This document shows, in pieces, positions 1-35,195 of a DNA stretch of 64,000 nt. The DNA lies in the NCBI GenBank assembly GCA_030167865.1, contig JALAGF010005825.1, positions 1-64,000 of the forward strand, given 5' to 3'. Below the pieces are notes generated by a model that saw only the letters and a list, made by a program, of their open reading frames with translations, ran no database searches and was not told the DNA's origin. The position numbers were made by a program, and so were the translations under genes. Origin of the DNA: Craspedostauros australis (lineage: Eukaryota). Numbering within the stretch: the first letter of the stretch is position 1; every line of letters begins with the position of its first letter.

Positions 1-3000
1 GCTGGTTGGGCCGCTAGTTGGTCCAGACGTTGGTCCAGATGTTGGTCCCGAAGTTGGGCCGGATGTGGGTCCAGAGGTTGGTCCGCTAGTTGGTCCAGAG
101 GTTGGTCCGCTAGTTGGTCCAGACGTCGGTCCCGAAGTTGGTCCGCTGGTTGGTCCAGATGTTGGTCCGCTGGTTGGTCCGCTGGTTGGTCCGGATGTTG
201 GTCCCGAAGTTGGTCCAGAGGTTGGTCCCGAGGTTGGTCCAGAAGTAGGTCCAGATGTTGGTCCAGATGTTGGTCCGCTGGTTGGGCCGCTGGTTGGTCC
301 CGAAGTTGGTCCCGAGGTTGGTCCCGAAGTTGGTCCAGAAGTAGGTCCCGAAGTTGGTCCAGAAGTAGGTCCAGAGGTTGGTCCAGAGGTTGGTCCGCTG
401 GTTGGTCCGGATGTTGGTCCAGAGNTGGTTGGTCCGCTGGTTGGTCCAGATGTTGGTCCAGATGTTGGTCCAGATGTTGGTCCGCTAGTTGGTCCCGAAG
501 TTGGGCCGCTAGTTGGGCCGGAAGTAGGTCCTGAAGTTGGTCCGCTGGTTGGTCCAGAGGTTGGGCCGAATGTTGGTCCACTGGTTGGGGCGGATGTGGG
601 TGATGCGGTTGGCTCAATGCACTCAGTGTTGCACGGCAGTTCGAAGTAGTACGCCTCAAAGTTGTCCGGGTTGCCGGATCCGGTCTCCCCATCGTCGGTT
701 GGCAGACTGCATGCTTCGCAATCTTCGCCAGCGAAGTCATCGCCTGTGTAGATGTAGATTGTGACCATGGTTGTTTGGTCGATGCACTCAGCAGCGTACG
801 AGAACGTGGAGTCTTCGCCCGCATTCATGATCTCCGAACACTCATTGATTCCTGTCTCGGCATTGCGGTATTTAATAAACACATGTGGAATGACCCCGTT
901 GATGATATTCTGGACAAAGTCAAATTCAACGAGTGTGCCGTCGTCGCTCTCGAATGTCAGGACAATGGGCTTCGGGTCAGCAGTGTAGTCTGGGTCGGTT
1001 GATCCCTTCAACTTGGCACCATCGGGATCAACGCAGTTGGTCGGCGCGGCGCTGGTGGTTGGAGCAGAAGTAGGTGTGCTGGTTGGGCCGCTGGTTGGGC
1101 CGGAAGTCGGTCCCGAAGTTGGGCCGCTGGTTGGTCCGCTTGTTGGTCCCGAAGTTGGGCCGCTGGTTGGTCCGCTAGTTGGCCCAGAGGTTGGGCCGGA
1201 AGTTGGTCCGGATGTTGGTCCAGAGGTGGGCCCACTGGTCGGGCCGGATGTTGGCGCAGATGTTGGTCCCCCAGTTGGGCCGCTGGTCGGCCCAGAAGTC
1301 GGTCCACTGGTTGGTCCAGATGTTGGGCCGCTCGTCGGTCCACTGGTGGGTCCGCTGGTTGGTCCAGATGTTGGGCCAGAGGTTGGTCCAGATGTTGGGC
1401 CAGATGTTGGGCCAGAGGTTGGTCCAGATGTTGGGCCAGAGGTTGGTCCAGATGTTGGGCCCGATGTTGGACCGCTGGTAGGGCCGGATGTTGGCGCAGA
1501 TGTTGGTCCTCCAGTTGGGCCGCTGGTTGGTCCAGATGTTGGTCCAGATGTTGGTCCAGAGGTTGGGCCGCTAGTCGGTCCACTGGTGGGTCCGCTGGTT
1601 GGTCCAGAAGTGGGGCCGGATGTTGGGCCAGAGGTTGGTCCAGAGGTTGGTCCAGATGTTGGACCGGATGTTGGTCCGCTGGTAGGGCCGGATGTTGGCG
1701 CAGATGTTGGTCCTCCAGTTGGTCCGCTGGTTGGTCCAGATGTTGGTCCCGAGGTTGGGCCGGACGTTGGTCCAGAGGTCGGTCCAGATGTTGGTCCAGA
1801 TGTTGGTCCGCTGGTTGGTCCAGAGGTTGGTCCGCTGGTTGGTCCGCTGGTTGGTCCGCTGGTTGGTCCAGAGGTTGGTCCAGAGGTTGGTCCAGAGGTT
1901 GGTCCAGAGGTTGGTCCAGAGGTTGGTCCAGAGGTTGGTCCAGAGGTTGGTCCAGAGGTTGGTCCAGAGGTTGGTCCAGAGGTTGGTCCAGAGGTTGGTC
2001 CAGAGGTTGGTCCAGATGTTGGTCCGCTGGTAGGGCCGGATGTTGGTGCAGATGTTGGTCCTCCGGTTGGTCCGCTGGTTGGTCCAGATGTTGGTCCAGA
2101 CGTTGGACCGGACGTTGGTCCAGAGGTCGGTCCACTGGTCGGTCCACTGGTTGGTCCGCTGGTTGGTCCAGAAGTGGGGCCCGATGTTGGTCCACTGGTT
2201 GGGCCGCTGGTAGGTCCAGATGTCGGTCCGCTGGTCGGTCCGCTAGTTGGCCCAGAAGTGGGGCCTGATGTTGGTCCGCTGGTAGGGCCGGATGTTGGTG
2301 CAGATGTTGGTCCTCCAGTTGGTCCGCTGGTTGGTCCGCTGGTTGGCCCGGATGTTGGGCCGGACGTTGGTCCGGATGTTGGTCCTGAGGTTGGTCCGCT
2401 GGTTGGTCCGCTGGTTGGTCCAGAAGTGGGGCCCGATGTTGGTCCCGAGGTTGGTCCCGATGTCGGGCCGCTGGTAGGTCCAGAGGTTGGTCCAGATGTT
2501 GGGCCCGAAGTAGGTCCAGATGTCGGTCCGGAGGTTGGTCCACTGGTTGGTGCTGAAGTTGGCGCTGCGGTTGGATCGATACACTCGGTCTGGCATGGAA
2601 CCTCGAAGTAGTATGCCTCGAAGTTGTCCGGGTTTCCAGAGTCTCCTTCGCCATCCGGGATGCTGCAAGCTTCGCACTCCTCACTTGGGAAATCTTCTCC
2701 TGTGTAGATGTAGATGGTGACTCCAGTCACTCCATCGAAGCACTCGGCAGNNNNNNNNNNNNNNNNNNNNNNNNNNNNNNNNNNNNNNNNNNNNNNNNNN
2801 TCCTGTGTAGATGTAGATGGTGACTGAGGTCACTCCTTCGAAGCACTCGGCAGTGAGTGGGTATGTAGCACCAAGGCCGACAGTATCGAACTGAGCGCAA
2901 TCCTCTGTTCCGGTTTCTTGGTTGCGGTACTTGATGAAGACATGTGGGATGACTCCGTTGATGATGTTCTGCACAAAGTCGAACTCAACACTGGTTCCAT

Positions 3001-6000
3001 CGTCACTCTCGAAAGTGAGGACGATTGGAAGTGGGTCGGCAGTGTAAGTAGGGTCNNNNNNNNNNNNNNNNNNNNNNNNNTTTGGATCAACGCAGTTGGT
3101 TGGTGCTGCGCTGGTGGTTGGAGCAGAAGTTGGCGCGCTGGTTGGTCCAGATGTTGGTCCTGAGGTTGGTGCAGAAGTTGGTCCCGATGTTGGTCCCGAT
3201 GTTGGGCCGCTGGTTGGTCCAGAAGTTGGTCCCGATGTCGGGCCGCTGGTAGGTCCAGAGGTTGGTCCAGAGGTTGGGCCCGAAGTAGGTCCAGATGTCG
3301 GTCCGGAGGTTGGTCCACTGGTTGGTGCTGAAGTTGGCGCTGCGGTTGGATCGATANNNNNNNNNNNNNNNNNNNNNNNNNNNNNNNNNNNNNNNNNNNN
3401 NNNNNNTGTTGGGCCCGAAGTAGGTCCAGATGTCGGTCCGGAGGTTGGTCCACTGGTTGGTGCTGAAGTTGGCGCTGCGGTTGGATCGATGCACTCGGTC
3501 TGGCATGGAACTTCAAAGTAGTATGCCTCGAAGTTGTCCGGGTTACCAGAGTCCCCTTCATCTGGGATGCTGCAAGCTTCGCACTCCTCACTTGGGAAAT
3601 CTTCTCCTGTGTAGATGTAGATGGTGACTCCAGTCACACCAGAGAAGCACTCGGCAGCGAATGGCAAAGTGGCGCCGGTCTCGACGTTGTCGAACTGGGC
3701 ACAATCCTCTGTTCCGGTTTCTTGGTTGCGGTACTTGATGAAGATATGAGGGATGACTCCGTTGATGATGTTCTGCACAAAGTCGAACTCAACACTGGTT
3801 CCATCGTCACTCTCGAAAGTGAGGACGATTGGAAGTGGGTCGGCAGTGTAAGTAGGGTCAGTAGATTCCTTGAAGATAGCTCCATTTGGATCAACGCAGT
3901 TGGTTGGTGCCGCGCTGGTGGTTGGAGCAGAAGTTGGTGCTGAGGTTGGTGCGGATGTCGGCCCTGAGGTTGGTGCAGAAGTTGGTGCCGATGTTGGTCC
4001 TCCGGTAGGTGCAGATGTCGGTGCCGAAGTTGGCCCTGAGGTTGGCGCAGATGTCGGTGCAGATGTGGGTCCGCTGGTAGGTCCAGATGTTGGTTTGGAG
4101 GTTGGTGCCGCGGTTGGGCCACCTGTTGGTGCTGAGGTTGGCGCAGAGGTTGGTCCGCTTGTTGGAGCAGAGGTTGGAGCAGAGGTTGGTGCAGATGTTG
4201 GTTCCGCAGTTGGCCCTGAGGTTGGCGCCGAAGTTGGGGACGCAGTTGGATCGATACACTCGGTCTGGCATGGAACCTCAAAGTAGTATGCCTCGAAGTT
4301 GTCCGTGTTACCAGAGTCTCCTTCATCCGGGATGCTGCAAGCTTCGCACTCCTCACTTGGGAAATCTTCTCCTGTGTAGATGTAGATGGTGACTCCAGTC
4401 ACTCCTTCGAAGCACTCGGCAGCGAATGGCAAAGTAGTACCAAGGGTGACAGTGTCGAACTGGGCGCACTCCTCGTCTCCACTCTCCTGACTGCGGTACT
4501 TGATGAAGACATGTGGGATAACTCCGTTGATGATGTTCTGCACAAAGTCGAACTCAACACTGGTTCCATCGTCACTCTCGAAAGTGAGGACGATTGGAAG
4601 TGGGTCGGCAGTGTAAGTAGGGTCGGTAGATTCCTTGAAGACGGCTCCGTTTGGATCAACGCAGTTGGTTGGTGCTGCGCTGGTGGTTGGAGCAGAAGTT
4701 GGCGCACTGGTTGGTCCGGATGTTGGTGCCGACGTTGGCTTGCTGGTTGGTGCGGATGTTGGCCCTCCGGTTGGATTGCTGGTTGGGGCAGATGTTGGTG
4801 CCGAAGTTGGGCCGCTGGTAGGTCCGGAGGTTGGATCGCTTGTTGGGGCAGAGGTTGGCGCAGATGTTGGTTCCGCAGTTGGCCCTGAGGTTGGCGCCGA
4901 AGTTGGGGACGCAGTTGGATCGATACACTCGGTCTGGCATGGAACCTCAAAGTGGTATGCCTCGAAGTTGTCCGAATTTCCAGAGTCCCCTTCATCCGGG
5001 ATGCTGCAGGCTTCGCACTCCTCACTTGGGAAATCTTCTCCTGTGTAGATGTAGATGGTGACTCCAGTCACTCCATCGAAGCACTCGGCAGCGAATGGCA
5101 AAGTAGTACCAAGGGTGACAGTGTCGAACTGGGCGCACTCCTCGTCTCCACTCTCCTGACTGCGGTACTTGATGAAGACATGTGGGATAACTCCGTTGAT
5201 GATGTTCTGCACAAAGTCGAACTCAACACTGGTTCCATCGTCACTCTCGAAAGTGAGGACGATTGGAAGTGGGTCGGCAGTGTAAGTAGGGTCGGTGGAT
5301 TCCTTGAAGACGGCTCCATTTGGATCAACGCAGTTGGTTGGTGCTGCGCTGGTGGTTGGAGCAGAAGTTGGCTTGCTGGTTGGTGCGGATGTTGGCCCTC
5401 CGGTTGGATTGCTGGTTGGTGCAGATGTTGGTGCCGAAGTTGGGCCGCTGGTAGGTCCAGATGTTGGATCGCTTGTTGGAGCAGAGGTTGGTGCAGATGT
5501 TGGTTCCGCAGTTGGCCCTGAGGTTGGCGCCGAAGTTGGGGACGCAGTTGGATCGATACACTCGGTCTGGCATGGAACCTCAAAGTNGTATGCCTCGAAG
5601 TTGTCCGNNTTNCCAGAGTCNCCTTCATCCGGGATGCTGCANGCTTCGCACTCCTCACTTGGGAAATCTTCTCCTGTGTAGATGTAGATGGTGACTCCAG
5701 TCACTCCATCGAAGCACTCGGCAGCGATTGGCAATGTGGTACCAAGGGTGACAGTGTCGAACTGGGCGCACTCCTCGTCTCCGCTCTCCTGGTTGCGGTA
5801 CTTGATGAAGACATGAGGGATGGTGTCGGTGGAGAGGTTCTGCACAAAGTCGAACTCGACACTGGTTCCATCGTCACTCTCGAAGGTGATGACGATTGGA
5901 AGTGGGTCGGCGGTGTATGTAGGGTCGGTGGACTTGGTGAGCTTGGCTCCATTTGGATCAACGCAGTTGGTTGGTGCCGCGCTGGTGGTTGGAGCAGAAG

Positions 6001-9000
6001 TTGGCTTGCTGGTTGGTGCGGATGTTGGTCCTCCAGTTGGCTTGCTGGTTGGTGCGGATGTTGGGTCGCTCGTTGGCGCGGATGTTGGGTCGCTGGTCGG
6101 AGCGGAGGTTGGCTTGCTGGTCGGAGCGGATGTTGGGTCGCTGGTTGGTGCAGATGTTGGATCGCTGGTTGGTGCAGATGTTGGGCCGCTGGTTGGAGCC
6201 GAGGTAGGCTCGGCCGTCGGTCCAGAAGTTGGTGCGCTGGTGGGCGAAGCGGTTGGTTCTCCGCACTCAGTGTCGCAAGGAATCTCGAAGCTGTACGCCT
6301 CGAAGTCAGCTGGGTCGCCGTCTGGGATCTCGCATGCCTCGCATTCCTCCGCGGGGAAGTCTTCTCCGGTGTAAATGTAAATCGTGATGGTGGTGATCTG
6401 ACCGTAACACTCAGCGGTGATTGGGATCTTCTTGCCAAATTCGACGTCATCGTGCTTGGCGCAGTCGTCCATTCCAGACTCTGGGTTGCGGTACTTGATG
6501 AAGACATGTTTGATTTCCCCATTGAGAATGTTCTGCACAACATCGACCTCGACGGTGCTTCCATCATCGCTCTCGAAGGTGATGACGATTGGGAGCGGAT
6601 CAGCGGTGAAAGTGGGGTCGGTGGATCCGGTGAACTTCGCGCCGTTTGGATCGACACAGTTGGTTGGTGCCATGCTGGATGTCGGGGCGGATGTTGGGGA
6701 GGCGGTTGGCGCGGACGTCGGCGCTGACGTTGGCGCGGATGTCGGGGCGGATGTTGGGGAGGCGGTTGGCGCGGACGTCGGCGCGGATGTCGGGGCGGAT
6801 GTTGGCGCGGATGTCGGGGAGGACGTCGGCGCGGATGTCGGGGAGGACATCGGCCCGGATGTTGGCGCGGATGTCGGGGCGGATGTCGGGGATGTGTTTG
6901 GGCATTCCGGAATCGGTGGGATGGGAAGGTCGCATGGCGGGTCGAAATCGATGTTGTGGAATTCACTTCCGTAGGCATCGTGAGTGACGTCTCCTCCGAC
7001 GATGGTACGACCACTCTGACCTGGGGCGGTGAACTCCAGGTCTGCGAATGGCGCCAAGATGGTACCGATGAACTCTCCGTTTCCGTTCAAGCCTCCTCCG
7101 ATCTCAACGGAGGTGGCATCGTAGAAATTCCAGATCATGCCGGCGGCCATGTCCTTGCTGAAGGCCTTGTCGACGCCGAGGCTGGCCTGGTCGCTCTTTG
7201 CACCATCGTAGAACTTTGCGAGATTTGCGATCTTGACGTGGCCGTTGCTGTCGGACCCGACGTTGAAGAGCATGGTCTTGCCCGAAAGGTTCTTGAAGAA
7301 GACTTCAGTTCCCCAGTCTCCGAAGTAGAGGTCGTCGTAATCCAGATCGAAGACCTGAAGACAGCCGTCATTGGGGGCGGCGCCTGCGATGAACTCGACG
7401 TAGTTTCTGCCGGTACGGTCGGTGTAGACACCATTCGCTGGGAGTGTGGCCCAGTACGCAGACTTGATCTTGAGGGCCTCAATCACATCAGTGTAATAGG
7501 TCAGGTCGAGGTTGGGAGTGTGCTGGACGATTCCGCCGAGACCGTTGGGGTTTGAACCGGAGAGGGTTCCTCCGTATCTGACGTACGCGTTGCTTGGGTT
7601 GACGAGCACAATGGATCTGTTGATGACCATGTTACCTCCGACAAGGAAGACATCCTGGTCACCCTCGGGGATGATACAGGAACCGACACCGGCGAAGACG
7701 ACGGAGTTGATGGACTGGTCACCAGTGGTGATAAAGTCACCACCAATGACGATCTTTCCTTCGATCTCAGCAGATTGGATGGAGGTGTACGTTCCTCCCA
7801 CGAGGAAGGCTACCTTGTTGTCGTATCCCGTGGGGGTGAGACAGTCATCGAGGTTGGGGTACTCGGCGACGTATGGGAATCCGGAGCCCACGGCATCGCC
7901 GATATTGTCTTCGCAGACGGACGCGCTGGGTGGGTTGCATGTCAGGGAGCCGACGAAGGCGTCACCGTGGAGCTGGGAACCAGAGACATCGGTCGGTTGG
8001 GAGAATTCCTTGGCGACGACGAGGCCGTCCATGGCTTGAATGTCAGAAGCGACTTCGACTGTGGCGAAGGGAGCGATGATGATCGCTCCCCACTGCCTGC
8101 CGCAGTTCTTCACGGTGATTTTCTCGTTGGTGTTGAAGAAGATGATGGTCCTTCCGTTGTCCTCTGCTTGGATGTCGCCGTCGAGGAAGTTGCACATCGT
8201 GACATCACCACCGGTGGTGCGGACGAAGACGTTGCCGTCGGACTGTTTACGGGTGGAGACTTCCTTGACGTTTTGAGTGAGCCAGACGTAGTGATCCCAT
8301 TTGGCGCGGGTCAAGGCATTGCTGTCGTTTGAGATGGCTGGACCACAGCGAGGATCGAAGTTGACGTTGTTGTTGGTGATGCTACCTCCGGCGAACACCT
8401 CTCCGTCCTTGTTGCTGCAGAATTTGTAGGAGTTGCTGTTGTTCACACGGTTGATGTTACCTCCTGCGGCCACTCCACTGTAGATGTTCTTGGATCCGAT
8501 GAGCATATCTCCCTCGGTGATGACCGTGAAAAGACCATGGTTGTCCGGAAGGGCGCAGGCGAAGCTGCCCCCGCTGCCCGAATTTCCAAAGAAGTTCTGG
8601 GTGCTGCTGCCAGGGTCGATGGGCGAGGTGGTTGGCGTCTTGGTCGGCGAGTCGGTCGGCGGGGATCCGGATGGCTGGACTGGCGGGTCGCCTGGATAGC
8701 AGCCGTTCCAGTATTCGTTGACGTACTGACAGTAGTAACCGGCGCAGCAGTTGCTGTAGGTACCCGGCTGTTCGCACCCACCCCAGGCGGCGACGCACTG
8801 TGCTTGGGTGGGGGCGGAGGTGGGGGCTTCGGTGGGGGATGGGGCGGATGGGCCGCTCGGCGCGAAACCTGCCTGACAGGAGTTCCAGCCTACGCCACCG
8901 TACACACAGTGCGAACCGTCGCAGCAGGTGCTCTTGGTGCCGGGGTTGTTGCAATGAAAGCCCCACAGGCGGGTACAGGTTTCGCCCGGAGGAGTCTGGC

Positions 9001-9184
9001 AATGATCCCAGCCGTTGCTGAAGATGCATTCCGAGGTTCCGCAGCAATTGTCGTTTCCGCTGGGGCACCATGTATTGAGGGGGGTACATGTGGCGTCCGC
9101 GGTTGGCATCAGCATGGCTGCTGCGATGAGTCCCAAGAAACCGAGGGACGGCATGATGCCTCTGAAGGAGGCCTTGGTGTTCAT
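1..9184 (-). CDS. Giant secreted modular adhesin/mucin-like glycoprotein (trailin-like); 3' end lies beyond the window
   Basis: ATG at 9184 with signal peptide (MNTK...LGFLGLIAAAMLMPTADA). ORF 2681..9184 appears to end only because of the N-gap at 2751-2800; below the gap the minus strand again reads AECFDGVTGVTIYIYTGEDF... and continues through PTSG arrays and another domain copy (1040-610) to position 1. Architecture: 3 Cys knots, 2 choice-of-anchor-A-like domains, >=7 repeated Cys domains, PTS linkers. Confidence 0.9.
610..6665 (-). repeat. At least 7 tandem copies of a ~400-bp (~135 aa) domain (TNCVDPNGA...YIYTGEDF..ECEAC...FEAYYFEVPC.TEC)
   Basis: Copies at approx. 6665-6260, 5970-5550, 5340-4915, 4670-4250, 3905-3480, 3095-2575 (gap-interrupted, possibly two copies) and 1040-610. 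Central copies are nearly identical at DNA level. Confidence 0.92.
1040..2575 (-). repeat. 12-bp coding minisatellite (consensus GGTTGGTCCAGA on +) encoding PTSG/PTSA tetrapeptides; similar arrays at 1-610 and between domain copies
   Basis: Direct inspection; near-perfect run of ggttggtccaga units at 1861-2015. Confidence 0.95.
6930..8560 (-). other. Two tandem choice-of-anchor A (ice-binding-like beta-helix) domains, approx. 8560-7936 and 7830-6930
   Basis: Motifs IYSGVAAGGN...IIFFNT...WGAIIIAPFATV...DGLVVAKEF...QLHGDAF and AEIEGKIVIGGDF...MIWNFYDATSVEI...FIGTILAPFA...GRTIVGG...EFHNIDF match the EGxxxxGG / LWNFxxA / GSxLAPxA / ExH pattern recalled for this family. Confidence 0.75.
8696..9091 (-). 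other. Three 6-Cys modules (C-x6/7-C-x6/8-CC-x4-C-x8/9-C), knottin/CBM1-like
   Basis: CTPLNTWCPSGNDNCCGTSECIFSNGWDHC; CTRLWGFHCNNPGTKSTCCDGSHCVYGGVGWNSC; CVAAWGGCEQPGTYSNCCAGYYCQYVNEYWNGC. The third resembles the CBM1 tail (CxxxNxYYxQC), and each carries two Trp. Confidence 0.65.
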
Positions 9185-9775
9185 GGTGACGAACGGGTGT
9201 GGGCGTTGCGTCTGGTCTGCTTGGCTGTTGCCTTGGTTGTTGTCTTGGCTGTTGTCTTGGCTACTGTCTTGGCTACTGTCGCGGGGTCTGGCGGGAGTAG
9301 ACTTGGTGTCGGTCGCAAGCGTGCGCTTCTGCCTTTTGCGATCTGCCTGCTGGAGCTGAACCGAGGTGATGCGGTGCGCTTCGGATCCTGATGGATTCGA
9401 GTCGTTCCGTTTCGGTTGGTTCTTGCTCGAGGAGTCGGATGCTCTGTGCGTTTGCTTCTGCTCCAGCTGCTGCTGTTGCGGATTGCTTGGCGGTTGGTCT
9501 TGGGCTGTCGGGCTGTTGGGCTCTTGGGCTCTTGGCTGTGGATGCTCGCGGGTGCGGCAAACTTTTCTGCAACGGCGGGTGGATGCGGTTGGCGTGAGCC
9601 TAGTTCTGGGCTGGGTCTCCTTTCCTTCTTCGGTCGACTGAACGAGTTCGGTCGATCGTTGTCAGGTTGGGAGAGACGAGGTCAGAAGTCTGCTCTTGCT
9701 GTTTTGCTTTCACTTTTGCTGAAGAAAAGTTTTTTGAGCTGAATGGCGGAGGAGTGGCGGAAGGGATTGTGCATC

Positions 9776-9820: not shown

Positions 9821-12800
9821 GTTGTTGTCGTGCTCTTTCGTGCTCTTTCTTGGTCGTTTTTCTTTTCTTGCCCTTGGTTGCCCAGCGTTCTGGCGCGTTG
9901 CTGGTCGCCGATGCGTCGCAAGGGAGGGAACCACGGACCTTCGCTTCGGCCTGGTGCGAGGATGACTCCCAAGGATCTCGTTGGGCACCAAATCCGACCA
10001 GGTCGATGTCTCTGTCACCGCTGCTGGTCGTGCAACGCTGACGACGATGGAACTGTTTTTCCTGCTTTCTCGCCCATAGCGCACACCCCAATACCGCGAT
10101 CTGTGGGTGGCTTGGTCGGTGGTCAACCAAGGGCCAACAAAGGGACAGTGCACACACTCGCAGAGAACATGGGTTGCACCAGTCGCACACGCATCGAGCA
10201 AACGGCCTCTTTTGCACCCCTGTGCGAAGCTGCCTTGAGCTTTCGCCCTCGTCGATGACCACGCAAAACCGGCAGGAGGAACACAAATGCCTCCCACTCG
10301 CACAATAGATATTCTGTTGGTCTTTTGAACGGGACATCGTGACATTTTCTCGGTTACTCCAAGAGGTTGTGGTTGCCCCGCTACGAGCATGATGGGCGAA
10401 ATCGCTAAATTTGTGCATGCGGTCAACCACAACCATCGGTTCCGGTCATTGGTTCGGCTTTTCTTCGGTCATAGTGACCAAGGTTGCATGCAATCCGGGA
10501 AGGTAACATCTTGAGCCGCGTCACAGCGACATATTTTCGCTTGGAACTAAGCCTGAGGGAGTCAAATAATCGTGCCCGTAGTCTTAAATGCAGGCGTTTC
10601 ACGACCGGTCAAACTTGCGCTCCATTCGCGGCCATGACCACTTTGGGTGACGTTGTTGGAAGAAACTGTTGACAAACGGAGTTGTGCGTGCCGAGCTCCG
10701 GGACGCCTTTGCCTCTGGTTGGGGCGTCCTTTGCGTCTGCCTCCGCTGTTTTCGGTCGCGAAAAGCCTTTGGCGTCGACAGGTGCAAAACCAACCCCAAA
10801 AGCGAATTTGTCCAACCCGGCAAGACACGTCCATCTGTTGGCGACACTAACATCGGTCTTGGTTACGTCCAAGCATGCGCGTGAACTTGCGACGAAGCCG
10901 AGCCGTCATGGGAACTCCTTTTTGGTATATGAGGTATATAATATATTAAGAGATAAAATCAAAACCAAACACAAATGCAAATGTGAGATCCAGATCCTCT
11001 GTCTCGCTCTGCTCCACAGAAAGAGAGAGCAGTTTGCTGATTCCCATTCGGGATTGCCAGACGTGATCGACCATACCCGTAGTCCCACCAAGAAATGACT
11101 TGGTCCACGATCTTGGCCGAAACTCCCACATCAAACCATCGCTTCACCAAGCTCACCTGCTGGTTTGGAGTGACACTTGGAGCCAGATGGGGCACCCTCA
11201 CCGAAATTGCAACTCATAACCGAACGCCAACAGAGAGGATGGCGTGATCGGAGAGAGCTCTGGCAGCCTCCTTCACACGTACGACCGACTACTCGTTCAG
11301 TGGGTACAGTATTATGTATTATCCAATGTTTTGCAGTTGCACAAGGGACGTAACGTCGTTGCCATCCTTCCATCCTTCCTTCCATAATTGGAAATTAGGC
11401 ATGGCAAGGATCACAACTTAAACTCCTCCGGCAAATGTTGATGACCTCTCGTCTCAGATAGAGGCCTGCCAGCGGCACCAGACATGCCCCAATTTCATCA
11501 ACCACCCCCATGACCATCGGAGAGATCTGGGCGCACGCATGTCAACAACACAAGTGTGGATCTCAGCCCACGAAACAACCCAGCCCCTGGTTCGCAAATC
11601 CAAGACCGATTCCTCACAAACCAAGAGGCGAAACAAAAGCGCCAAAGAACAACCGATGAGAATGCGTTCGACTCCACGTTCCCATTCGTCCATTCCTTCG
11701 CTTTTTTTCTGACGATCGAGTGATGGCGGAAATGGTCAGAGGGAGGAACACAACGACGGCAGCCAGCCAGCCATCCAACTCGCGCGATCTTTTCAGGCCT
11801 TTCCTCTCTCTGTCTCTCTCTTCGTGTGTGCTTCTTTTGCCTCCTTCCCATTTCGCTCATTTGTATCCCAACAGCGGTCAAGGCAGAATCACGGCATCTG
11901 CTGCCCACCGCCAGCACAATGATGAAGGGGCATCACCAACCCACCAAAAGATGAGGGCGCCACCATGCGGAGTCTTTTGCACCTCTCGCAATCCTCCAAT
12001 CGAAACGCAAAACGAAAGAGCAACGTCGATGGTGCTGTGCGGTCCTCATTCATCTCTCGTTTGTTTCTTCTTGCCGTCAGCCTCTGCCTTGATCGTCCGA
12101 GCCATCGTACAACTGCACTCTCTGCAAGCTCTGCCCAATAGAATCCTCTCATCCATGCACCATACTCAACATTCCTATCCACCAATCTGTCCCTCTCTCT
12201 CTCTCTCTCTGCCCCAAACGCCGAGGGTGAGTTGCGATGATTTGTCTCCCAAACATGCTTTCGTTCTTTCTTTCTACACGGCCAATGCCGCAGGGTACGT
12301 GTGCCATGTCATGGCAGGATCACCATCCCGCATCTCTCTCGAGATAGCTGATGGTCTGTCCACCAGCAACCACCATCATCATGAGCAGTACTCACGTGAG
12401 TGTCGCGCCTCGGAGGAAACCAGTAGTCGGTTGATTGGCTTCACCAGAATGAGCCTTGTGCAAACTGCGAAGAAGAGTAGGATTACGTCGCAGTGAGTGA
12501 CGGGCATCTCTCTTGACGCCTTGATCGCCAGATGCGTCTGGGTGCGTACCGACGAGCACGAGCAATTCTACCAGACGTATCGATACACGTGACTATCCGC
12601 GTCTTCTTGCTCGCAGAGTGGGTACGCACGCACAAGTACCATGCCCCGCTCATTGTGATTGTTCCTGCCTGATAGATCGCAGGTGATGCTGTTGTTGTGC
12701 GTTGCTGCGCCCTCGTGTGGCACAGTAGACATCTTCCTTTGGAATCAGCGAGGGAGCGGGAACCACAACCAGAGGAGACAGAAAAGCAGTGGAGTAGGTC

Positions 12801-16700: not shown

Positions 16701-18284
16701 TTAAAAATACCGCTGCGGCTGATGCATGCGCTCGACGATGACGATGGTCCCGCGATTGCCTCGCGTGATGCGCATGGTGTCATCCATGTAGAGGACGTCT
16801 AGCCATCCGACGGGTGAACGTTTCATATCGAAATGGAATGAATTCTCAATGCGCAGGGCGTCGACGGCATTCTTGGCCATCCATTTGTTCTTGTATTCCA
16901 AGGTGGGACGCGTGAGGCCCAGAACGGTCTGCAGGATGGTGTCCCACAGCGATAGTTTGGTTGCGGAAGAGGAGGAGGACGAGGTGTTGAGGAAGGATCG
17001 CCTCCATTCCTGCAGCTTGGCGGCATTGCGGACGGTGCTGCGGGCCGGTACCAAGGTGCCGCCCGTGAATTGGACGCGCAGGCGTTTGCGCTTGGTGGCG
17101 GCATCGTCTTCGTAGTGGCAGACAGCGTGGTTGCAGATGAGGGCCTGCAGCGGGATCCCGTTTGGCGTGGAGATGAGCATGTCGCAGAATATGTTGTAGG
17201 TGAACTGCTTCGTGTTGGCGGACGCGAGCTGCGGCGTGCGCAGGGGGAAGACCTGGTTGCGGATGCCCACGAGCGTGCAGACGAGGTCGCTGGGCTGGAA
17301 TATGTTGAAGGAGATCCTGCCCAGGGTGTACTTGGTGAGCTGGCTGCCGAAGTCGCTCTGGAAGCTGGCAGCTCCATTGGCGTTTGCGCTGTTGCCGGCA
17401 TCGTTTTGGTCGTCGATGCTGTTGCCGTTCCCGTTGAACATTGTGGAGGAGGCCGCCGCGAGTTCCGCGGGCGAGTCCTCGTTGTCGTAGATGCGTCCCG
17501 GGAAGGTGGGCGCTGTGAGGGTGCGGAAGTTTCCGCATAACTGGCTGAGCATGGTGTTCTCCACGCTCTGCGCAGTGAGGTTGTTGGCCTCCATGTTGTT
17601 GATGTAGAGGTCGTGCAGCTTGTCGATGACCTTGGCCACCTCCGGGTGGTCCGGGTCTCCTTCGTACTTGCGCAGCACGATGCGCAGCTCGCGTTTGGTC
17701 TGCGCGACGTGGCTCTGCGCGGATCTGTTGGTGGCGAGGATCCTGGCGCTGCGTTTGTTGTCGTCGTCGTTGTTGTTGCCTCCGTTGGGCGTGGTGACGC
17801 CAGGCCCGAAGAGGGACCTGGGATTGCGCAGCCGCGGCTCCTGAGCTCTGGTGTCTGATGTTGTGGAGGCAGGCATGGCGGAGGAAGAGGCGGCCGGGTT
17901 GAAGGTCCTGAACATCTCGTTGAGCGGTCCTCTGGGTGTGAATGGTGTTCTGCCGTTGCCATTGCTGTTGCCATTCGCATTGATGCCTGCATCCACATTG
18001 ATGTCATTGATGTCCCTGTCATTCATGTCCACATCCATGCCATTCATGTCATTGATGTCTGTGGTGCGACGAATGCGATTGGCACCTCCAAAAGGCTGGA
18101 AAAAGTTGGGTCTGGAGGTGGAGAGACGTCCGACCGCATTCAGCTGAACTCCATTGCGCTGTCCTTGTCGTTGCGGTTGCTGGTAAGACTGATTGTGAGA
18201 CGCGTAGTGATGCTGAGGAAGGCTGGGAGAGCCGGTCGTCAGCAGGCTCGACTGCGTGTACGCATATGCCAACAGGAGCTGCAT
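16701..18284 (-). CDS. PAP/fibrillin-like domain protein (start uncertain)
   Basis: 527-aa ORF; C-terminal GWLDVLYMDDTMRITRGNRGTIVIVER is typical of the PAP_fibrillin C-terminus; Asn-rich low-complexity N-terminus. Confidence 0.75.
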   Translation of the reverse strand: MQLLLAYAYTQSSLLTTGSPSLPQHHYASHNQSYQQPQRQGQRNGVQLNAVGRLSTSRPNFFQPFGGANRIRRTTDINDMNGMDVDMNDRDINDINVDAGINANGNSNGNGRTPFTPRGPLNEMFRTFNPAASSSAMPASTTSDTRAQEPRLRNPRSLFGPGVTTPNGGNNNDDDNKRSARILATNRSAQSHVAQTKRELRIVLRKYEGDPDHPEVAKVIDKLHDLYINNMEANNLTAQSVENTMLSQLCGNFRTLTAPTFPGRIYDNEDSPAELAAASSTMFNGNGNSIDDQNDAGNSANANGAASFQSDFGSQLTKYTLGRISFNIFQPSDLVCTLVGIRNQVFPLRTPQLASANTKQFTYNIFCDMLISTPNGIPLQALICNHAVCHYEDDAATKRKRLRVQFTGGTLVPARSTVRNAAKLQEWRRSFLNTSSSSSSATKLSLWDTILQTVLGLTRPTLEYKNKWMAKNAVDALRIENSFHFDMKRSPVGWLDVLYMDDTMRITRGNRGTIVIVERMHQPQRYF

Positions 18285-20467: not shown

Positions 20468-20795
20468 GATTGCGCGGATGGAGGTGAGTTCACTTGAATC
20501 GGACTGGTCATCATCGTTGAGTCGTGTCAGGACTGCGCGGTCCGTTGAGGGTTTTTTCGTGACCGCACAAAAATCAACTTCAACCACCACAGGAAGCGGC
20601 AAGACGGCGCGAGACCAACAGATGCAACGCAGAACCGAAACGGTTGGGGTTCCCTCCTCCCTTTCTTGTTCTTGCTTGCTTGGTTTCTTGGTGCGCGAAG
20701 TCATCCACTTGGCATTCAACTTGGCATTCAACTTGGCATTGCACTTGGCACTGCACTGCATCACACAAATAGCAACGACAGTTAGCAACGCAACC

Positions 20796-22646
20796 ATGGT
20801 GTCCACAACCGCGATCGCCGGCGTATTGACGGTGCTGATTGCCGCCGCGGCCGCGTACTTCTTCCTGAAGGCCAAGCAGGCGAAGAAGGCCAAGGACATC
20901 GACGATGGCGACTCCGTGTCCCCACCCGTGGAGGGGCAGAACGTGACGCTGACGGACGTGGCCTACCTAATGAACAAGCTGTCGCCCGACAGCAGCCACA
21001 TGGACGTGCTGTGGGCCATCGTGAGCTCGCCGGAGTCCATCAAGTACGGCCTCATGGCGCACAAGATGGTGGAGAAGCGCCGCGAGGATCGCGCCAAGCA
21101 GGATGCGGAGGTCAAGGAGGCCGCCAAGAAGAAGACGGACGCCGTGTCCTTCGACCTCGACGATGGCGGCTGGGACGACGACAACGACGCGGAAGAGGAG
21201 GACGAAGAGGCCAAGCGCAAGGCCAAGCTCGCGGCGGCGGCCGACGAACAGAAGAAGAAGGACATGGAGCAGCTCAACAAGGCCTCGGGCAAGTTCCAGC
21301 TCAAGCTGGAGGGCTTCGATGAGGGCGTCATCGGCCAGAAGTGGGTGGAGAAGATCCTGTCGGAGAAGGGATGCTGGCCACCCAAGGACCTGGGATTGCT
21401 CAACAACGAGGAGTACACCTACGGCGGCAAGCTCGTCGGTGCGCTCGATCATCCAGGACTCAGACGCAACATCTGCATGCTCATGGGACGTCTCAACTCT
21501 GCCATGCTCAACTCTCATCCTGATCTGCGTAAGTCCTGTCGATTGTCCATTGTCCATTCTGTTGTTGTCGTTGCTGCTGCGCTGGACAATGTTGCTCTGT
21601 TCATGTGCTTGACACTTGACATGCTCTTTACATGCTCTCTCCGTCACACGTGTTCTCATCTCACGCATCTCGTAATTTTCGGTTCTCATTCATTGGCATT
21701 TCTAATCCACGTGGATACGCGACTCCACAATGCACCACCATGCACCCCGCATCTCTCTAAATTGCATTGCATTGCACTGTTGTATTGCGCAGTCGAAGCC
21801 GGCGCAAAGCAGCTCGTCGACCAAACCTATTTCCGACGCAGCCTGGAATTCCGCAGCCGCGTTTCCACCCTGCTGGAGGCCGTGCTGCGATCCGCCGTCG
21901 CGTCGCGTTCCCACGCGCTCGCCAAAACCGTCGTCGAGACCGTCTCCATGTTCAAGGTCGGCTGCGGCCTCGACAAGACCGAATGGTTCGAAGGCATCAT
22001 GCAGAAGCAGTACCAGTGCCTGCCGCGGCTGCAAATCAAGAACACGGAGGTTGCCAACGCTGACGGAGAGAAGGAGATCATCCCCGGCGACCTCATCTCG
22101 ATATCCCTCGACCTCACCCGATTGCACGCCGAGTCCTTCACGCGCCAGAAGATCGCCATGTACCAGAAGCAGGGCATCCCGCCGCAGATCGCCCTGCAGA
22201 GCTACCGCGAGAGCTGGTGGTTCCTGGTGCGCGCCGAGCGTCTCGATGGACCCGCGCCCAAGACCGAGATGAAGATCAACACGAATGGCATCCTGCAGGC
22301 CGTCAAGGAGGAGGATCTCGCCAAGTTCAAGTCCGCCACCTTCGAGGATCAGCTCATCACGGCCTGGCCTATGGTCGTGCAGAACGTGGCGCAGAAGTCA
22401 GGACGCGTCGGCATCAACTTCCTCTCCCCCACCGATCCGGGCAAGTACAAATTCACGGTCATCGTCAAGAGCCAGGACTTTTTGGGGGCCGATCAGGAGT
22501 TCGACGTCACCGGCACCGTCATCGATGGCACAGGCATCACGCGAAAACCCAAGGAGAAGAAGGAAGCCGGGGACAAGAAGAACAAGGAGGAGGAGAAGGA
22601 GGAGAAGGATGGCAAGAAGGAAGAGCCAGCCGCCAAGAAGGAGTAG
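20796..22646 (+). CDS. Sec63-domain membrane-anchored protein, 2 exons (20796-21528, 21793-22646), ~528 aa
   Basis: N-terminal TM anchor; C-terminal ESWWFLV...PGKYKFTVIVKSQDFLGADQEF resembles the Sec63/Brr2 Ig-like (FN3) domain; intron GTAAGT(21529)...GCAG(21792) removes a stretch lacking codon bias. Confidence 0.8.
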   Translation: MVSTTAIAGVLTVLIAAAAAYFFLKAKQAKKAKDIDDGDSVSPPVEGQNVTLTDVAYLMNKLSPDSSHMDVLWAIVSSPESIKYGLMAHKMVEKRREDRAKQDAEVKEAAKKKTDAVSFDLDDGGWDDDNDAEEEDEEAKRKAKLAAAADEQKKKDMEQLNKASGKFQLKLEGFDEGVIGQKWVEKILSEKGCWPPKDLGLLNNEEYTYGGKLVGALDHPGLRRNICMLMGRLNSAMLNSHPDLRKSCRLSIVHSVVVVAAALDNVALFMCLTLDMLFTCSLRHTCSHLTHLVIFGSHSLAFLIHVDTRLHNAPPCTPHLSKLHCIALLYCAVEAGAKQLVDQTYFRRSLEFRSRVSTLLEAVLRSAVASRSHALAKTVVETVSMFKVGCGLDKTEWFEGIMQKQYQCLPRLQIKNTEVANADGEKEIIPGDLISISLDLTRLHAESFTRQKIAMYQKQGIPPQIALQSYRESWWFLVRAERLDGPAPKTEMKINTNGILQAVKEEDLAKFKSATFEDQLITAWPMVVQNVAQKSGRVGINFLSPTDPGKYKFTVIVKSQDFLGADQEFDVTGTVIDGTGITRKPKEKKEAGDKKNKEEEKEEKDGKKEEPAAKKE

Positions 22647-34400: not shown

Positions 34401-35195
34401 GGGTGGGATTGTGGCATCTTCGTCTGCAAGTACGCGGGCGCCATGTTCAAGCTGCGGGATAAGAATTTCAGCAGGTTGGCCGCAGGGATCGTCGACGAAC
34501 CGCCCCAATCCAAAGCGCCAGCCAACAACGCCGCCCAGGATTCCCATGTTCCCATCAGTTCCAAACCGCGCGAAGCTCGGCGCATAGCATCCCCGTTCCA
34601 AGAGTTGATAGTGAACAGCGAGCACTTTGACTTCAACATGGATCACATTCATGAGTTTCGGGACAAGTTCGCTGCGATGCTGGTGAAACTGTCGGACCTG
34701 TACGCCGGGATGAAGCAAGGGGAGAAGGCGAAGAAGAACACCACGGAAGATAAAGAACACGTCAGCACAGGCCCGCACGAAGAAGTTGCTGTTGCCAGCC
34801 GCAACATCACAACACCCATCAAGTACGCCGACGCCGATGACGACCCGATGGAGGGAGTGGAATTGACGGATGTTGACGATCGCAACAAGCCCGTGGTCCA
34901 CGATCTCGTGCAGGCATCGCCGCCGGTGGACACAGGTCTCGTCGTGCAAACCGGAGCCAATCTGGGCGTTGTCGTGGCCGTGATCCCCGTTGCCACACCC
35001 ATCGAGCGCCGCAGCAATCCGGGCATCGCCGCGATCAACCGCGCCGCCGCAATCAAGCCGATCGACATGACGGAAAGTCCGATGGAGCAACCCATTCCAC
35101 GCAAGCGCGGGTTGGCGCAGAAGCAAGTCAATGATGCAAACGGTGGCGCAGTGCGAGGTGGCGTCTATGGGGATGTCGAAACTGCGGACGTGTGA
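28484..35195 (+). CDS. Ulp1/SENP family (peptidase C48) SUMO protease, SENP6/7/Ulp2-like; 5 exons 28484-31547, 31837-31965, 32223-33492, 33800-34212, 34384-35195 (~1895 aa)
   Basis: YLNDSLIDFW, HFFTSHFFTKL, YHWSLCV (His), FLDSL (Asp), QTNGWDCG (Gln/Cys). All four GT-AG introns give phase-consistent joins. Linking exons 1-2 to the rest is inferred. Confidence 0.82.

Follow-up and report, generated by a model that had tools for sequence, protein, structure and literature searches.

Gene structure and assembly state of the locus

The window analyzed here is a stretch of 64,000 nucleotides from Craspedostauros australis (assembly GCA_030167865.1, contig JALAGF010005825.1, positions 1 to 64,000). 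Near its beginning, the minus strand encodes a protein of at least 3,055 residues within the window, counted from an ATG at position 9184. The coding sequence comprises two open reading frames: ORF A (minus strand, 9184->2681; 2167 codons), which begins with this ATG, and ORF B (minus strand, 2730->1; 910 codons), which is still open where the window ends at base 1. The 3' end of the gene is thus outside the window. The features described in an earlier note, which read the locus as a trail-type adhesin from the sequence alone, were all recognized, and they are on the minus strand. [quoted passage not shown]

The first 6.4 kb (9184-2801) are one open frame, N codons excepted. Runs of N are present at 2751-2800, 3056-3080, and 3357-3406, in addition to single Ns. 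The sole frame change is located at the run 2751-2800, whose flanks share an overlap of about 50 nt that contains mismatches, and it is therefore attributed to an assembly join and not to an intron; the earlier statement that no intron is needed over 9 kb holds. An identical 83-nt block is present on both flanks of the run 3357-3406, indicating that this gap is an unmerged overlap. Owing to the assembly gaps in the repeats, the continuity of the sequence and the copy number of the beads are not established.

Upstream of the ATG, an A/C-rich and T-poor leader (9185..9661, minus strand) contains no in-frame stop and no in-frame ATG, GTG, or TTG over 159 codons; it is read as a non-coding 5' UTR or promoter. 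The neighboring ORFs match cathepsin L with the I29 propeptide, Ulp1, ankyrin repeats, and PAP-fibrillin, which indicates a eukaryotic setting.

Signal peptide, cysteine modules, and CAA domains of the head

The start codon and the predicted signal peptide (residues 1-31) occupy 9092..9184 (minus strand). The signal peptide, which the earlier note had proposed, was recognized by eye: K4 and R8 lie in a basic n-region, followed by a 17-residue hydrophobic core, IMPSLGFLGLIAAAMLM, and by A-D-A before T32. The +1 residue after the predicted cleavage site is Thr, not Phe; in diatom plastid presequences, Phe is expected at +1.

Three modules, each with six Cys and two Trp as previously noted, follow at 8699..9088 (minus strand; residues 33-62, 70-103, and 130-162), separated by short P/T/S linkers. 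Their Cys framework is C-x6-8-C-x6-8-CC-x4-C-x8-9-C, and the module HMM matches exactly these three sites among the 588 stop-to-stop frames of the window. The C-C-CC-C-C order and its spacing fit the inhibitor cystine knot (ICK) framework, and the chains matched by the module profile among the solved structures of PDB are ICK toxins (best e-value 7.3e-5, the others 0.007-0.01). A Pfam scan of the modules revealed no family at E<=10. The proposed Cys-knot nature is thereby borne out weakly, at the level of the pattern; the resemblance suggests an ICK-like module and is no proof of homology.

CAA domain 2 is a full-length domain at 6908..7864 (minus strand; residues 441-759). It matches PF20597 with the e-value 4.6e-35 over profile positions 14-253 of 254, and TIGR04215 with 129.2 bits against the cut-off of 29. 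Its alignment with LPXTG-type CAA proteins of actinobacteria spans the full length, and tblastn revealed 197 bacterial relatives. The identity is 26-32% to choice-of-anchor-A proteins of Actinomycetota and 36% to L001, a cyanobacterial SdrD_B-containing adhesin, and the motifs AE.EG, GVGS..P, QVF, LWNF, and G.IL.P are common to domain 2 and the bacterial proteins. The protein differs from the bacterial ones in its eukaryotic context and in the joining of domain 2 to PTS arrays, beads, and knottin-pattern modules; within the window, it shows none of the sorting signals LPXTG, PEP-CTERM, and T9SS. Of the bacterial sequences included in the phylogenetic tree, it is the cyanobacterial adhesin with which domain 2 clusters. 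This placement is compatible with the bacterial origin of diatom CAA domains reported in the available part of a preprint (Zackova Suchanova et al., bioRxiv 10.1101/2023.03.06.531300).

CAA-like domain 1 (7889..8599, minus strand; residues 196-432) is short and divergent. Its match to PF20597 is borderline, with 29.0 bits against the cut-off of 23.8 and the best stretch at profile positions 171-248 of 254, and its score against TIGR04215 (26.8 bits) is under the cut-off of 29. In the Atlas feature search, 21 of 30 matches of domain 1 were PF20597 clusters with the score 0.90. The comparison between domains 1 and 2 with hhalign was non-significant (E 0.065). Beyond this gene, the HMM of domain 1 matched only four proteins, P0024, P0004, P0007, and P0028; P0007 and P0028 carry this same domain, yet it goes unreported by Pfam in both at E<=0.01. 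The AF2 model of domain 1 has a mean pLDDT of 42.3 and shows no usable fold. Of the two CAA domains claimed by the note, domain 2 is thus clear, while domain 1 can be assigned to CAA by sequence only marginally. The two domains belong to separate lineages; by analogy with the family, whose beta-solenoid fold is seen in the published model of the CaTrailin4 CAA, both may adopt such a fold.

PTS arrays and bead domains of the stalk

The stalk extends over at least 2,290 residues, in agreement with the predicted length of more than 2000 residues. Its PTS arrays contain about 305 P-T-S-[A/G] tetrapeptide units in the window, with 6 to 124 units in an array. The first array (6674..6889, minus strand) has 18 units of the P-T-S-A type. 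The longest (1087..2574, minus strand) has 124 tetrapeptide units, P-T-S-G in 112 of them, and the last PTSG array (1..612, minus strand) has a frame open at the window edge. In the longest array, the period is 12 nt with DNA matches of only 75%, 50 distinct 12-mers are present, and Ser is specified by six codons, both TCN and AGY. The maintenance of PTSG in 112 of 124 units despite 50 distinct 12-mers indicates that the repeat is under selection at the protein level. P, T, and S account for 44% of the in-window protein, and 56% if G is included.

The glycofibril TLP-4 shows a PT/Sxx tetrapeptide pattern with 3,4-dihydroxyproline, in which dihydroxyproline carries two glycans and the neighboring Ser/Thr carries a third (Wang et al., PNAS 2024, PMC11725842). 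The authors of that structure themselves draw a link to PTSA/G-rich proteins of diatom trails. The arrays analyzed here fit this pattern in sequence, being likewise long tandem runs of PT/Sxx units (about 305, the longest run 124), and if each unit adds 12.4 A, as in TLP-4, they would correspond by our own arithmetic to a rod of about 380 nm. TLP-4 is anonymous in sequence and source, and dihydroxyproline and glycans are not readable from DNA. Unlike TLP-4, folded beads interrupt the arrays every 6 to 124 units and a globular head is present.

Seven acidic, Cys-containing bead domains of 133-140 aa alternate with the arrays. As anticipated, the frame of this alternating stalk is still open at the window edge. 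The six complete beads contain 7 Cys each, not 6; they have 27-29 D+E and 3-7 K+R. On the minus strand, bead 1 (6263..6661; 133 aa, 7 Cys, 29 D+E) is followed by bead 2 (5558..5968; 137 aa, with single Ns inside), bead 3 (4925..5335; 137 aa, the copy used for folding with AF2), bead 4 (4256..4666; 97.8% DNA identity with bead 3), bead 5 (3491..3901), bead 6 (2581..3097), and bead 7 (619..1038; 140 aa, 7 Cys). Bead 6 is broken by the N runs 3056-3080 and 2751-2800, and its frame shifts at the second.

The AF2 model of bead 3 (pLDDT 78.2) is an eight-strand sandwich resembling Ig, FN3, and PKD domains with Z of 5-6.8 (best 6.8), while Foldseek with this model gave no match at E<=1e-3. The model is consistent with an Ig/FN3-like sandwich at a generic level. 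The bead profile detected 229 representative proteins at E<=1e-3. Among the best 73 of these 229, DUF7633 is present in 21, PT repeats in 10, and CAA in 5. Six of 20 bead-family clusters checked have an organism label, and Bacillariophyceae is found in all six.

The relationship to DUF7633 is indirect. The bead profile lands on sites called as DUF7633 by Pfam, at residues 158-270 in P0036 (Pfam 156-263) and at 555-663 in P0038 (Pfam 552-656). None of four window beads matched the Pfam DUF7633 model (cut-off 27 bits) at E<=0.01, and bead 1 scanned alone against Pfam gave no DUF7633 at E<=10. Through the DUF7633-bearing regions of other proteins, the bead appears to be a distant relative of this family. 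DUF7633 is not mentioned in the papers covered by a literature search, and the bead-DUF7633 relationship, together with the Ig-like sandwich model, is new here.

Relationship to Trailins and possible function

The closest protein found is P0024 from Stauroneis constricta. Its domain order is the same: signal peptide, Cys modules, domain 1, domain 2, PTS, bead, PTS, and bead. The identity is 49% in domain 1 and 55% in domain 2. The protein P0028 from Nitzschia sp. Nitz4 has the same parts in a different order.

CAA-bearing proteins of diatom trails are designated as Trailins in the available part of their description (Zackova Suchanova et al., bioRxiv 10.1101/2023.03.06.531300); the literature to which the earlier note referred, on diatom trail proteins with CAA and PTS-rich regions, is real. 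According to this text, CaTrailin4 of C. australis is encoded by an intronless gene of 28,951 bp, its sequence is about 70% PTS (78% PTSG), and the 6-Cys DUF1 is repeated and separates the PTS regions. The protein analyzed here shares with the CaTrailin4 so described a signal peptide, the CAA or pAdhesive_15 domain PF20597, very long PTS arrays with a repeated Cys domain, an acidic polypeptide, and a giant intronless gene broken within its repeats by short-read assemblies. As in the published Trailins, no GDPH domain was seen in the in-window protein, which was read by eye. The layout matches that of CaTrailin4 as far as the latter is described in words.

There are also differences. The bead has 7 Cys against 6 in DUF1, a comparison based on the description of CaTrailin4, and the PTS content of the in-window part, 44% (PTSG 56%), is lower than that of CaTrailin4. 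Three knottin-pattern modules and a divergent second CAA-like domain are present here in addition, of which the available description of CaTrailin4 makes no mention. The three peptide epitopes of CaTrailins given in that text, including the one for anti-CaTrailin4, are absent from the window. CaTrailin3 is described there with eleven 6-Cys repeats; like the modules here, these belong to no known family and occur in other diatoms. Outside diatoms, gel-forming mucins likewise have long O-glycosylated PTS regions with Cys domains between them (the glycosylation being predicted here), and giant bacterial adhesins with Ig-like extenders, such as MpIBP in the description available, likewise have a long extender that is tipped by a binding region; no sequence relationship to either group was found.

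From these features, the locus is probably a giant, intron-free diatom gene whose product is an adhesive glycoprotein of the Trailin kind, secreted to the outside of the cell; the window contains no more than the 5' three-quarters of this gene. On this reading, the protein would be secreted into trails, take part in gliding, and be O-glycosylated. A less likely alternative, which still deserves weight, is a mucin-like glycoprotein of the cell surface or frustule coat, or a component of pads, stalks, or chain-linking material, serving protection, lubrication, or static attachment instead of gliding trails. CaFAP1 of C. australis, a cell-surface glycoprotein, shows the same mucin-like alternation of PTS-rich and Cys-rich domains, and type-1 CAA is reported also from non-motile (centric and araphid) diatoms, for which pad, chain, and aggregation roles were suggested, in the part of the same preprint that is available (bioRxiv 10.1101/2023.03.06.531300). 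With 229 representatives, the bead family is large, and CAA is missing in 68 of the best 73 matches, so the bead is not specific to trails; the C-terminus, where a membrane or wall anchor would be sited, lies beyond the window edge. On the other hand, the combination of CAA, long PTS regions, and a repeated Cys domain is that reported for a protein immunolocalized to trails and absent from the biofilm matrix, and the four proteins for which the available text reports CAA do not include CaFAP1 (bioRxiv 10.1101/2023.03.06.531300).

Two further explanations are very improbable, to a similar degree. An ice-binding or ice-adhesion protein, with the CAA beta-solenoids as ice-binding faces, is brought to mind by the Pfam name of PF20597, 'Putative Ice-binding-like adhesive domain', by the published model of the CaTrailin4 CAA, which superposes with FfIBP at a TM-score of 0.6, and by Ice_binding clusters among the Atlas neighbors of domain 1 at low scores (0.84-0.85). 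PF11999 (Ice_binding) nevertheless gave no match in residues 1-800 at E<=1, and none at E<=10 in domain 1 or in residues 1-195, and the CaTrailin4 CAA is reported, in the part of the source available, to have neither ice-binding motifs nor ordered surface carbons, and C. australis is no ice diatom (bioRxiv 10.1101/2023.03.06.531300). The other explanation is that the locus is not one real gene, but a bacterial contaminant or a chimera produced by repeat collapse in short-read assembly. CAA domains are mostly bacterial, the repeats are interrupted by N runs at three places and include a frame change, one gap being the unmerged 83-nt overlap, and beads 3 and 4 are nearly identical in DNA. Against this, the frame is single from 9184 to 2801 apart from N codons, the neighboring ORFs are eukaryotic, and the domain order recurs in the nearest relatives, which are diatom proteins. 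Contigs of the X1 data set, which is possibly the window's own source, match parts of 6900-8702 without difference, and repeat collapse would alter the number of beads, not the nature of the gene.

If the protein is an adhesive glycoprotein of the Trailin kind, it would leave the cell by the secretory pathway. The prolines of the arrays would be hydroxylated, and these prolines and the adjacent Thr/Ser would bear large O-glycans, turning each array into a stiff, protease-resistant, glycan-sheathed rod like the TLP-4 glycofibril. The beads would be folded, disulfide-stabilized spacers or hinges and possibly nodes of cross-linking, either via the seventh, odd Cys or via Ca2+ at the acidic surface. 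The N-terminal head may attach to the substratum or to other mucilage polymers, and the strands would be the material of adhesive trails or mucilage, by which the cell is tethered and gains traction when it glides. Tentatively, and with considerable doubt, the gene can be viewed as the template for a 'beads-on-a-rod' glycofibril, in which TLP-4-type rods of about 7 to 150 nm, with polysaccharides on dihydroxyproline and Thr, are joined by beads as hinges and covalent or Ca2+ cross-link nodes, and the head combines two separately evolved CAA lineages with knottin-type modules. If true, such a family would tie the anonymous environmental glycofibrils known from cryo-EM to the adhesion strands of diatoms.

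Underwater adhesion and gliding of diatoms drive marine biofilm formation and fouling, and trail proteins have been identified in only two diatom species so far. No trail protein is conserved over its whole length between diatoms, according to the available part of the Trailin report (bioRxiv 10.1101/2023.03.06.531300). The full domain order common to this locus and the S. constricta relative provides a conserved architecture for testing each part. It extends the Trailin family, first described in 2023, and does not overturn current views. The handles gained are the bead family of 229 representatives with its confident Ig-like model and a poorly recognized second CAA-like family. Also new are the separate CAA lineages, the grouping of domain 2 with a cyanobacterial adhesin, and the fit of the PTSG arrays to TLP-4, the only solved glycofibril. 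The long CAA form, the lineage of domain 2, has this cyanobacterial adhesin as its nearest bacterial relative in the sample, and the short form, the lineage of domain 1, elsewhere accompanies a GDPH-containing VWD domain (P0007). The published division, in the part of the source available, separates diatoms with 'type-1 CAA' from those with 'type-2 CAA plus GDPH' (bioRxiv 10.1101/2023.03.06.531300); it would be blurred if the head indeed combines both lineages.

Reading frame and assembly joins

The gene is encoded on the minus strand. A first frame of 2,167 codons runs from the ATG at 9184 to 2681, and a second frame of 910 codons, with the same kind of sequence, runs from 2730 to base 1. The second frame is still open at the window edge, which agrees with the view of the earlier note that the gene continues beyond it. 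The two frames were left unjoined. The in-window polypeptide has 3,055 residues (~295 kDa, pI 4.05), with a PTS content of 43.7% and a PTSG content of 56.2%.

Runs of N are present at 2751-2800, 3056-3080, and 3357-3406, and single Ns at 425, 5587, 5608-9, 5612, 5621, and 5642. The change of frame falls at the 2751-2800 run, whose flanks overlap by ~50 nt with a few mismatches, both sides reading "...VT.VTIYIYTG". The 50-N gap at 3357-3406 carries an identical 83-nt block on either flank, and is thus a contig overlap left unmerged, in which sequence is duplicated and no DNA is missing. The 25-N run at 3056-3080 stands for the expected number of codons. These sites are assembly joins within repeats, neither introns nor mutations. 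The claim that no intron is needed over 9 kb was therefore borne out, the frame change being an assembly join, but continuity and repeat number are not settled by this assembly.

Contigs from a sequencing run, X1, whose kind is guessed and which is possibly the window's own source, match portions of 6900-8702 and 9390-9609 without differences, leaving other portions uncovered. Upstream of the ATG, an A/C-rich, T-poor leader of 477 nt (9185-9661, minus strand) includes 159 codons in frame without a stop or ATG/GTG/TTG. This leader may be a long 5' UTR. The X1 match at 9390-9609 lies inside it.

The N-terminal head and its CAA domains

Residues 1-31 were read by eye and resemble a signal peptide, as had been proposed, with K4, R8, a 17-residue hydrophobic core, and A-D-A before T32. 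They are followed by the three expected Trp-bearing modules (residues 33-62, 70-103, and 130-162), each with six Cys in the order C-C-CC-C-C and two Trp. The modules align with like modules of four relatives under the consensus CxxxWxxC...CCxGxxC...WxxC. The module profile matched no Pfam family, and against PDB chain sequences it retrieved inhibitor-cystine-knot peptides (best e-value 7.3e-5, several near 0.01), which supports a knottin-type framework only at the level of sequence pattern. The Trp-bearing modules also look like fungal CBM1 cellulose-binding modules; this reading was set aside as less likely, as no Pfam CBM1 match was obtained at E<=10 and the PDB search gave inhibitor-cystine-knot chains. 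Local HMMs run over the 588 stop-to-stop frames of the window found the Cys modules, and the stalk beads described below, in this gene only.

[quoted passage not shown] Domain 2 (residues 441-759) is a full-length CAA domain, covering positions 14-253 of the 254 in PF20597 with the e-value 4.6e-35, and scoring 129.2 bits with TIGR04215 against a cut-off of 29. Its profile retrieved nothing related from PDB sequences (best e-value 0.33); from the family, the CAA domains would be expected to adopt a beta-solenoid. Domain 1 (residues 196-432) scores 29.0 bits with PF20597 (cut-off 23.8), the best-scoring stretch being the last third of the profile (171-248 of 254), and 26.8 bits with TIGR04215, under the cut-off of 29. 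With language-model features, 21 of its 30 matches were PF20597 clusters (score 0.90). No similarity between the two domains was detectable with BLASTP (e-value 0.02 over 29 residues) or hhalign (e-value 0.065, probability <1%), and the AlphaFold (AF2) model of domain 1, made from a 4-row alignment, reached a pLDDT of only 42.3. Because of the partial or sub-cut-off profile scores, the lack of similarity to domain 2, and the failed fold model, domain 1 is termed CAA-like; it is probably a divergent relative, not a proven CAA domain. The claim of two CAA domains thus holds in full for domain 2, and for domain 1 in this weaker form.

The domain 1 HMM matched four other proteins among the sequences searched. 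In P0024 from Stauroneis constricta and in P0004, the domain 1 type precedes domain 2, and in P0028 from Nitzschia it is placed after domain 2. In the fourth, the 610-aa metagenome protein P0007, the domain 1 type comes before PT repeats and a VWD domain with the letters GDPH in it; a mucin C8-like domain is also present. The make-up of P0007 indicates that this short CAA-like lineage in some organisms accompanies a GDPH/VWD module and elsewhere the long CAA domain. The window gene brings this second CAA-like lineage to light. A word-indexed search with domain 1 among proteins of 440-1400 aa found no homologue, none of the 138 pattern matches from a bacterial-genome scan with the domain 1 alignment was confirmed, and the HMM matched none of the best 80 of the 197 bacterial CAA loci described next.

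Scanning bacterial genomes with domain 2 yielded 197 relatives; among the best 80, nearly all are from Actinomycetota and show 26-32% identity. The cyanobacterial MAG contig L001 (match 374-1249) shows 36% identity with the e-value 2e-48, and codes for an adhesin of bacterial type that includes an SdrD_B domain. Its CAA domain is much nearer to the diatom clade than that of any of the 79 other loci among the best 80 of the 197. L001 could mark the donor lineage, or it could be a mis-binned contig. All 93 domains, every row included, were placed in a quick maximum-likelihood tree. There the 11 diatom-like domains are set apart by one branch (SH-aLRT 98), with L001 adjoining them (SH-aLRT 99), and the window domain 2 pairs with that of P0024 (SH-aLRT 94). 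This tree is based on a bacterial sample picked by patterns from our own alignment, a short search, SH-aLRT support only, and a midpoint root, and it contains long branches and diatom rows of deviating composition. The published bacterial origin of diatom CAA domains, considered in the earlier note as a horizontal acquisition, is compatible with this tree, but the tree alone gives no direction of transfer.

Tetrapeptide arrays and beads of the stalk

From residue 766 onward, arrays of the tetrapeptide P-T-S-x alternate with a folded bead of 133-140 residues. Seven acidic Cys-containing beads stand between arrays totaling 305 tetrapeptide units in runs of at least four (132 in the first frame and 173 in the second), and the alternation proposed for the stalk was found as described. 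The arrays change along the chain: PTSA is observed near the head, D or K occupies the fourth place further on, and the distal arrays are almost pure PTSG. In the longest array (1087-2574), 112 of 124 units are PTSG. Its DNA contains 50 distinct 12-mers and uses all six Ser codons, and Tandem Repeats Finder reports a period of 12 with only 75% matches. As PTSG is kept despite this diversity, the repeat is held at the protein level. The array also carries exact repeats in its DNA, reaching 144 nt in length, which indicates that it also grows by larger duplications.

One bead copy is broken by gaps, and each of the six intact copies has 7 Cys, 27-29 acidic residues, and 3-7 basic residues. Beads 2-5 share 88-98% DNA identity; for beads 1 and 7, identity to the rest is 63-70%. 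When 1.84 billion representative proteins were searched with a profile built from four window copies and the C-terminal domain of the relative P0005, 229 proteins matched at E<=1e-3, of which 78 reached <=1e-10 and 8 reached <=1e-30; most have two to seven copies. Among the best 73 of the 229, 21 contain DUF7633 (E<=1e-5), 5 contain CAA, and 10 contain PT repeats. The bead and DUF7633 matches coincide, as in the relative P0036 (158-270 and 156-263, respectively). None of the four window beads scanned matched Pfam DUF7633 at E<=0.01, nor did one copy scanned at E<=10, and no mention of DUF7633 was found in the literature search. The match in P0053 appears to be a false one, bacterial and of low complexity. 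Organism labels were available for 6 of the 20 bead clusters looked up, and all six are Bacillariophyceae: Stauroneis constricta (two), Nitzschia sp. Nitz4, the JGI label "Psemu1", a Bacillariaceae MAG, and Pseudo-nitzschia delicatissima. The other 14 are unlabelled metagenome proteins.

The bead structure was predicted with confidence and has eight strands (pLDDT 78.2, pTM 0.73). Its likeness to Ig-like, PKD, and FN3 sandwiches is generic, with the best Z of 6.8 within the tool's stated background, and Foldseek found no match to it in PDB at E<=1e-3. Language-model (atlas) features of the bead were uninformative (best score 0.78), and a homodimer was not supported by prediction (score 0.00 against the mark of 0.32). 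The analysis connects the bead, whose model is Ig-like, with a large DUF family.

Relationship to Trailins, proposed function, and neighboring ORFs

In the preprint by Zackova Suchanova et al. (bioRxiv 10.1101/2023.03.06.531300), the name Trailins denotes the proteins of C. australis trails that carry a CAA domain. CaTrailin4 is described there as an 894 kDa protein of ~70% PTS, encoded by an intronless gene of 28,951 bp, with its PTS regions separated by a recurring 6-Cys domain, DUF1; it is proposed to be O-glycosylated and to span a micrometre from the plasma membrane to the substratum. Diatom CAA domains are divided into two clades, type-1 and type-2, and GDPH proteins travel with type-2. 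The closest protein overall to the window protein is P0024, whose identity with it is 49% over domain 1 and 55% over domain 2. Up to the point where P0024 is cut off, its parts follow one another as in the window protein (signal peptide, Cys modules, domain 1, domain 2, PTS, bead, PTS, bead), a Trailin architecture conserved between species. A word-indexed search with residues 1-800 found no homologue, the words probably being drawn from PTS regions, and a metagenome-contig scan with the head found no relative. In the literature searched for Trailins, CaTrailin4, and pAdhesive_15, no homologue like this gene was found described, and none of the three CaTrailin epitopes occurs in any of the six frames of the window.

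The CryoSeek II paper (Wang et al., PNAS 2024, PMC11725842) reports the structure of a pond glycofibril, TLP-4, whose core is a PT/Sxx tetrapeptide repeat. In each repeat a 3,4-dihydroxyproline bears two glycans and a Ser/Thr is glycosylated as well, and the rise per repeat is 12.4 A; the authors point to PTSA/G-rich diatom trail proteins. The PT/Sxx pattern is matched exactly by the window arrays, and this links the stalk to TLP-4. By our own arithmetic, the reported rise applied to 305 units would give ~380 nm.

At the sequence level, the domains and their order, the structure of the repeats, peptide-level selection on the tetrapeptide repeat, and the family relationships are established, and as far as that level reaches, the reading of the gene as a giant trailin-like adhesin is supported. 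It is fairly likely that the product is a secreted Trailin-type adhesive or mucilage protein. A role in gliding trails in particular is less certain, and the main alternative, a static surface coat, pad, or chain adhesive, is rather unlikely. As a Trailin-type protein it would be secreted, and its arrays would be hydroxylated and heavily O-glycosylated, forming stiff glycan-sheathed rods. The beads would be spacers stabilised by disulfides and might also form cross-links by way of the odd Cys or Ca2+, and the head, with its two CAA domains and three aromatic knottin-type modules, may bind surfaces or polymers.

Other ORFs of the window were also recorded. An X1 contig at 11851-12500 has a depth of 131, against 6-12 for the other six contigs, and overlaps a 257-codon ORF without a Pfam match (11723-12496, plus strand); such uneven depth would fit a transcriptome, the kind of run being guessed. 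Two long plus-strand ORFs with signal-peptide-like starts and without a Pfam family, 44470-46083 (537 aa, 27 Cys, 28% PTS) and 58419-61037 (872 aa), possibly encode further secreted proteins. Three more on the same strand, 28484-31609 (1041 aa), 61112-63940 (942 aa), and 20478-22646 (722 aa), match no Pfam family at E<=1e-3. A 573-aa ORF (23230-24951, plus strand) contains a thrombospondin type 1 repeat at 21.8 bits, against the Pfam cut-off of 21.6. Five ordinary eukaryotic ORFs match a cathepsin L-like protease with an I29 propeptide (50293-51624, minus), a Ulp1 protease fragment (33870-35195, plus), two ankyrin-repeat proteins (38315-40891, minus; 36747-38261, plus), and a PAP-fibrillin C-terminus (16701-18284, minus), and thus the window is eukaryotic DNA.
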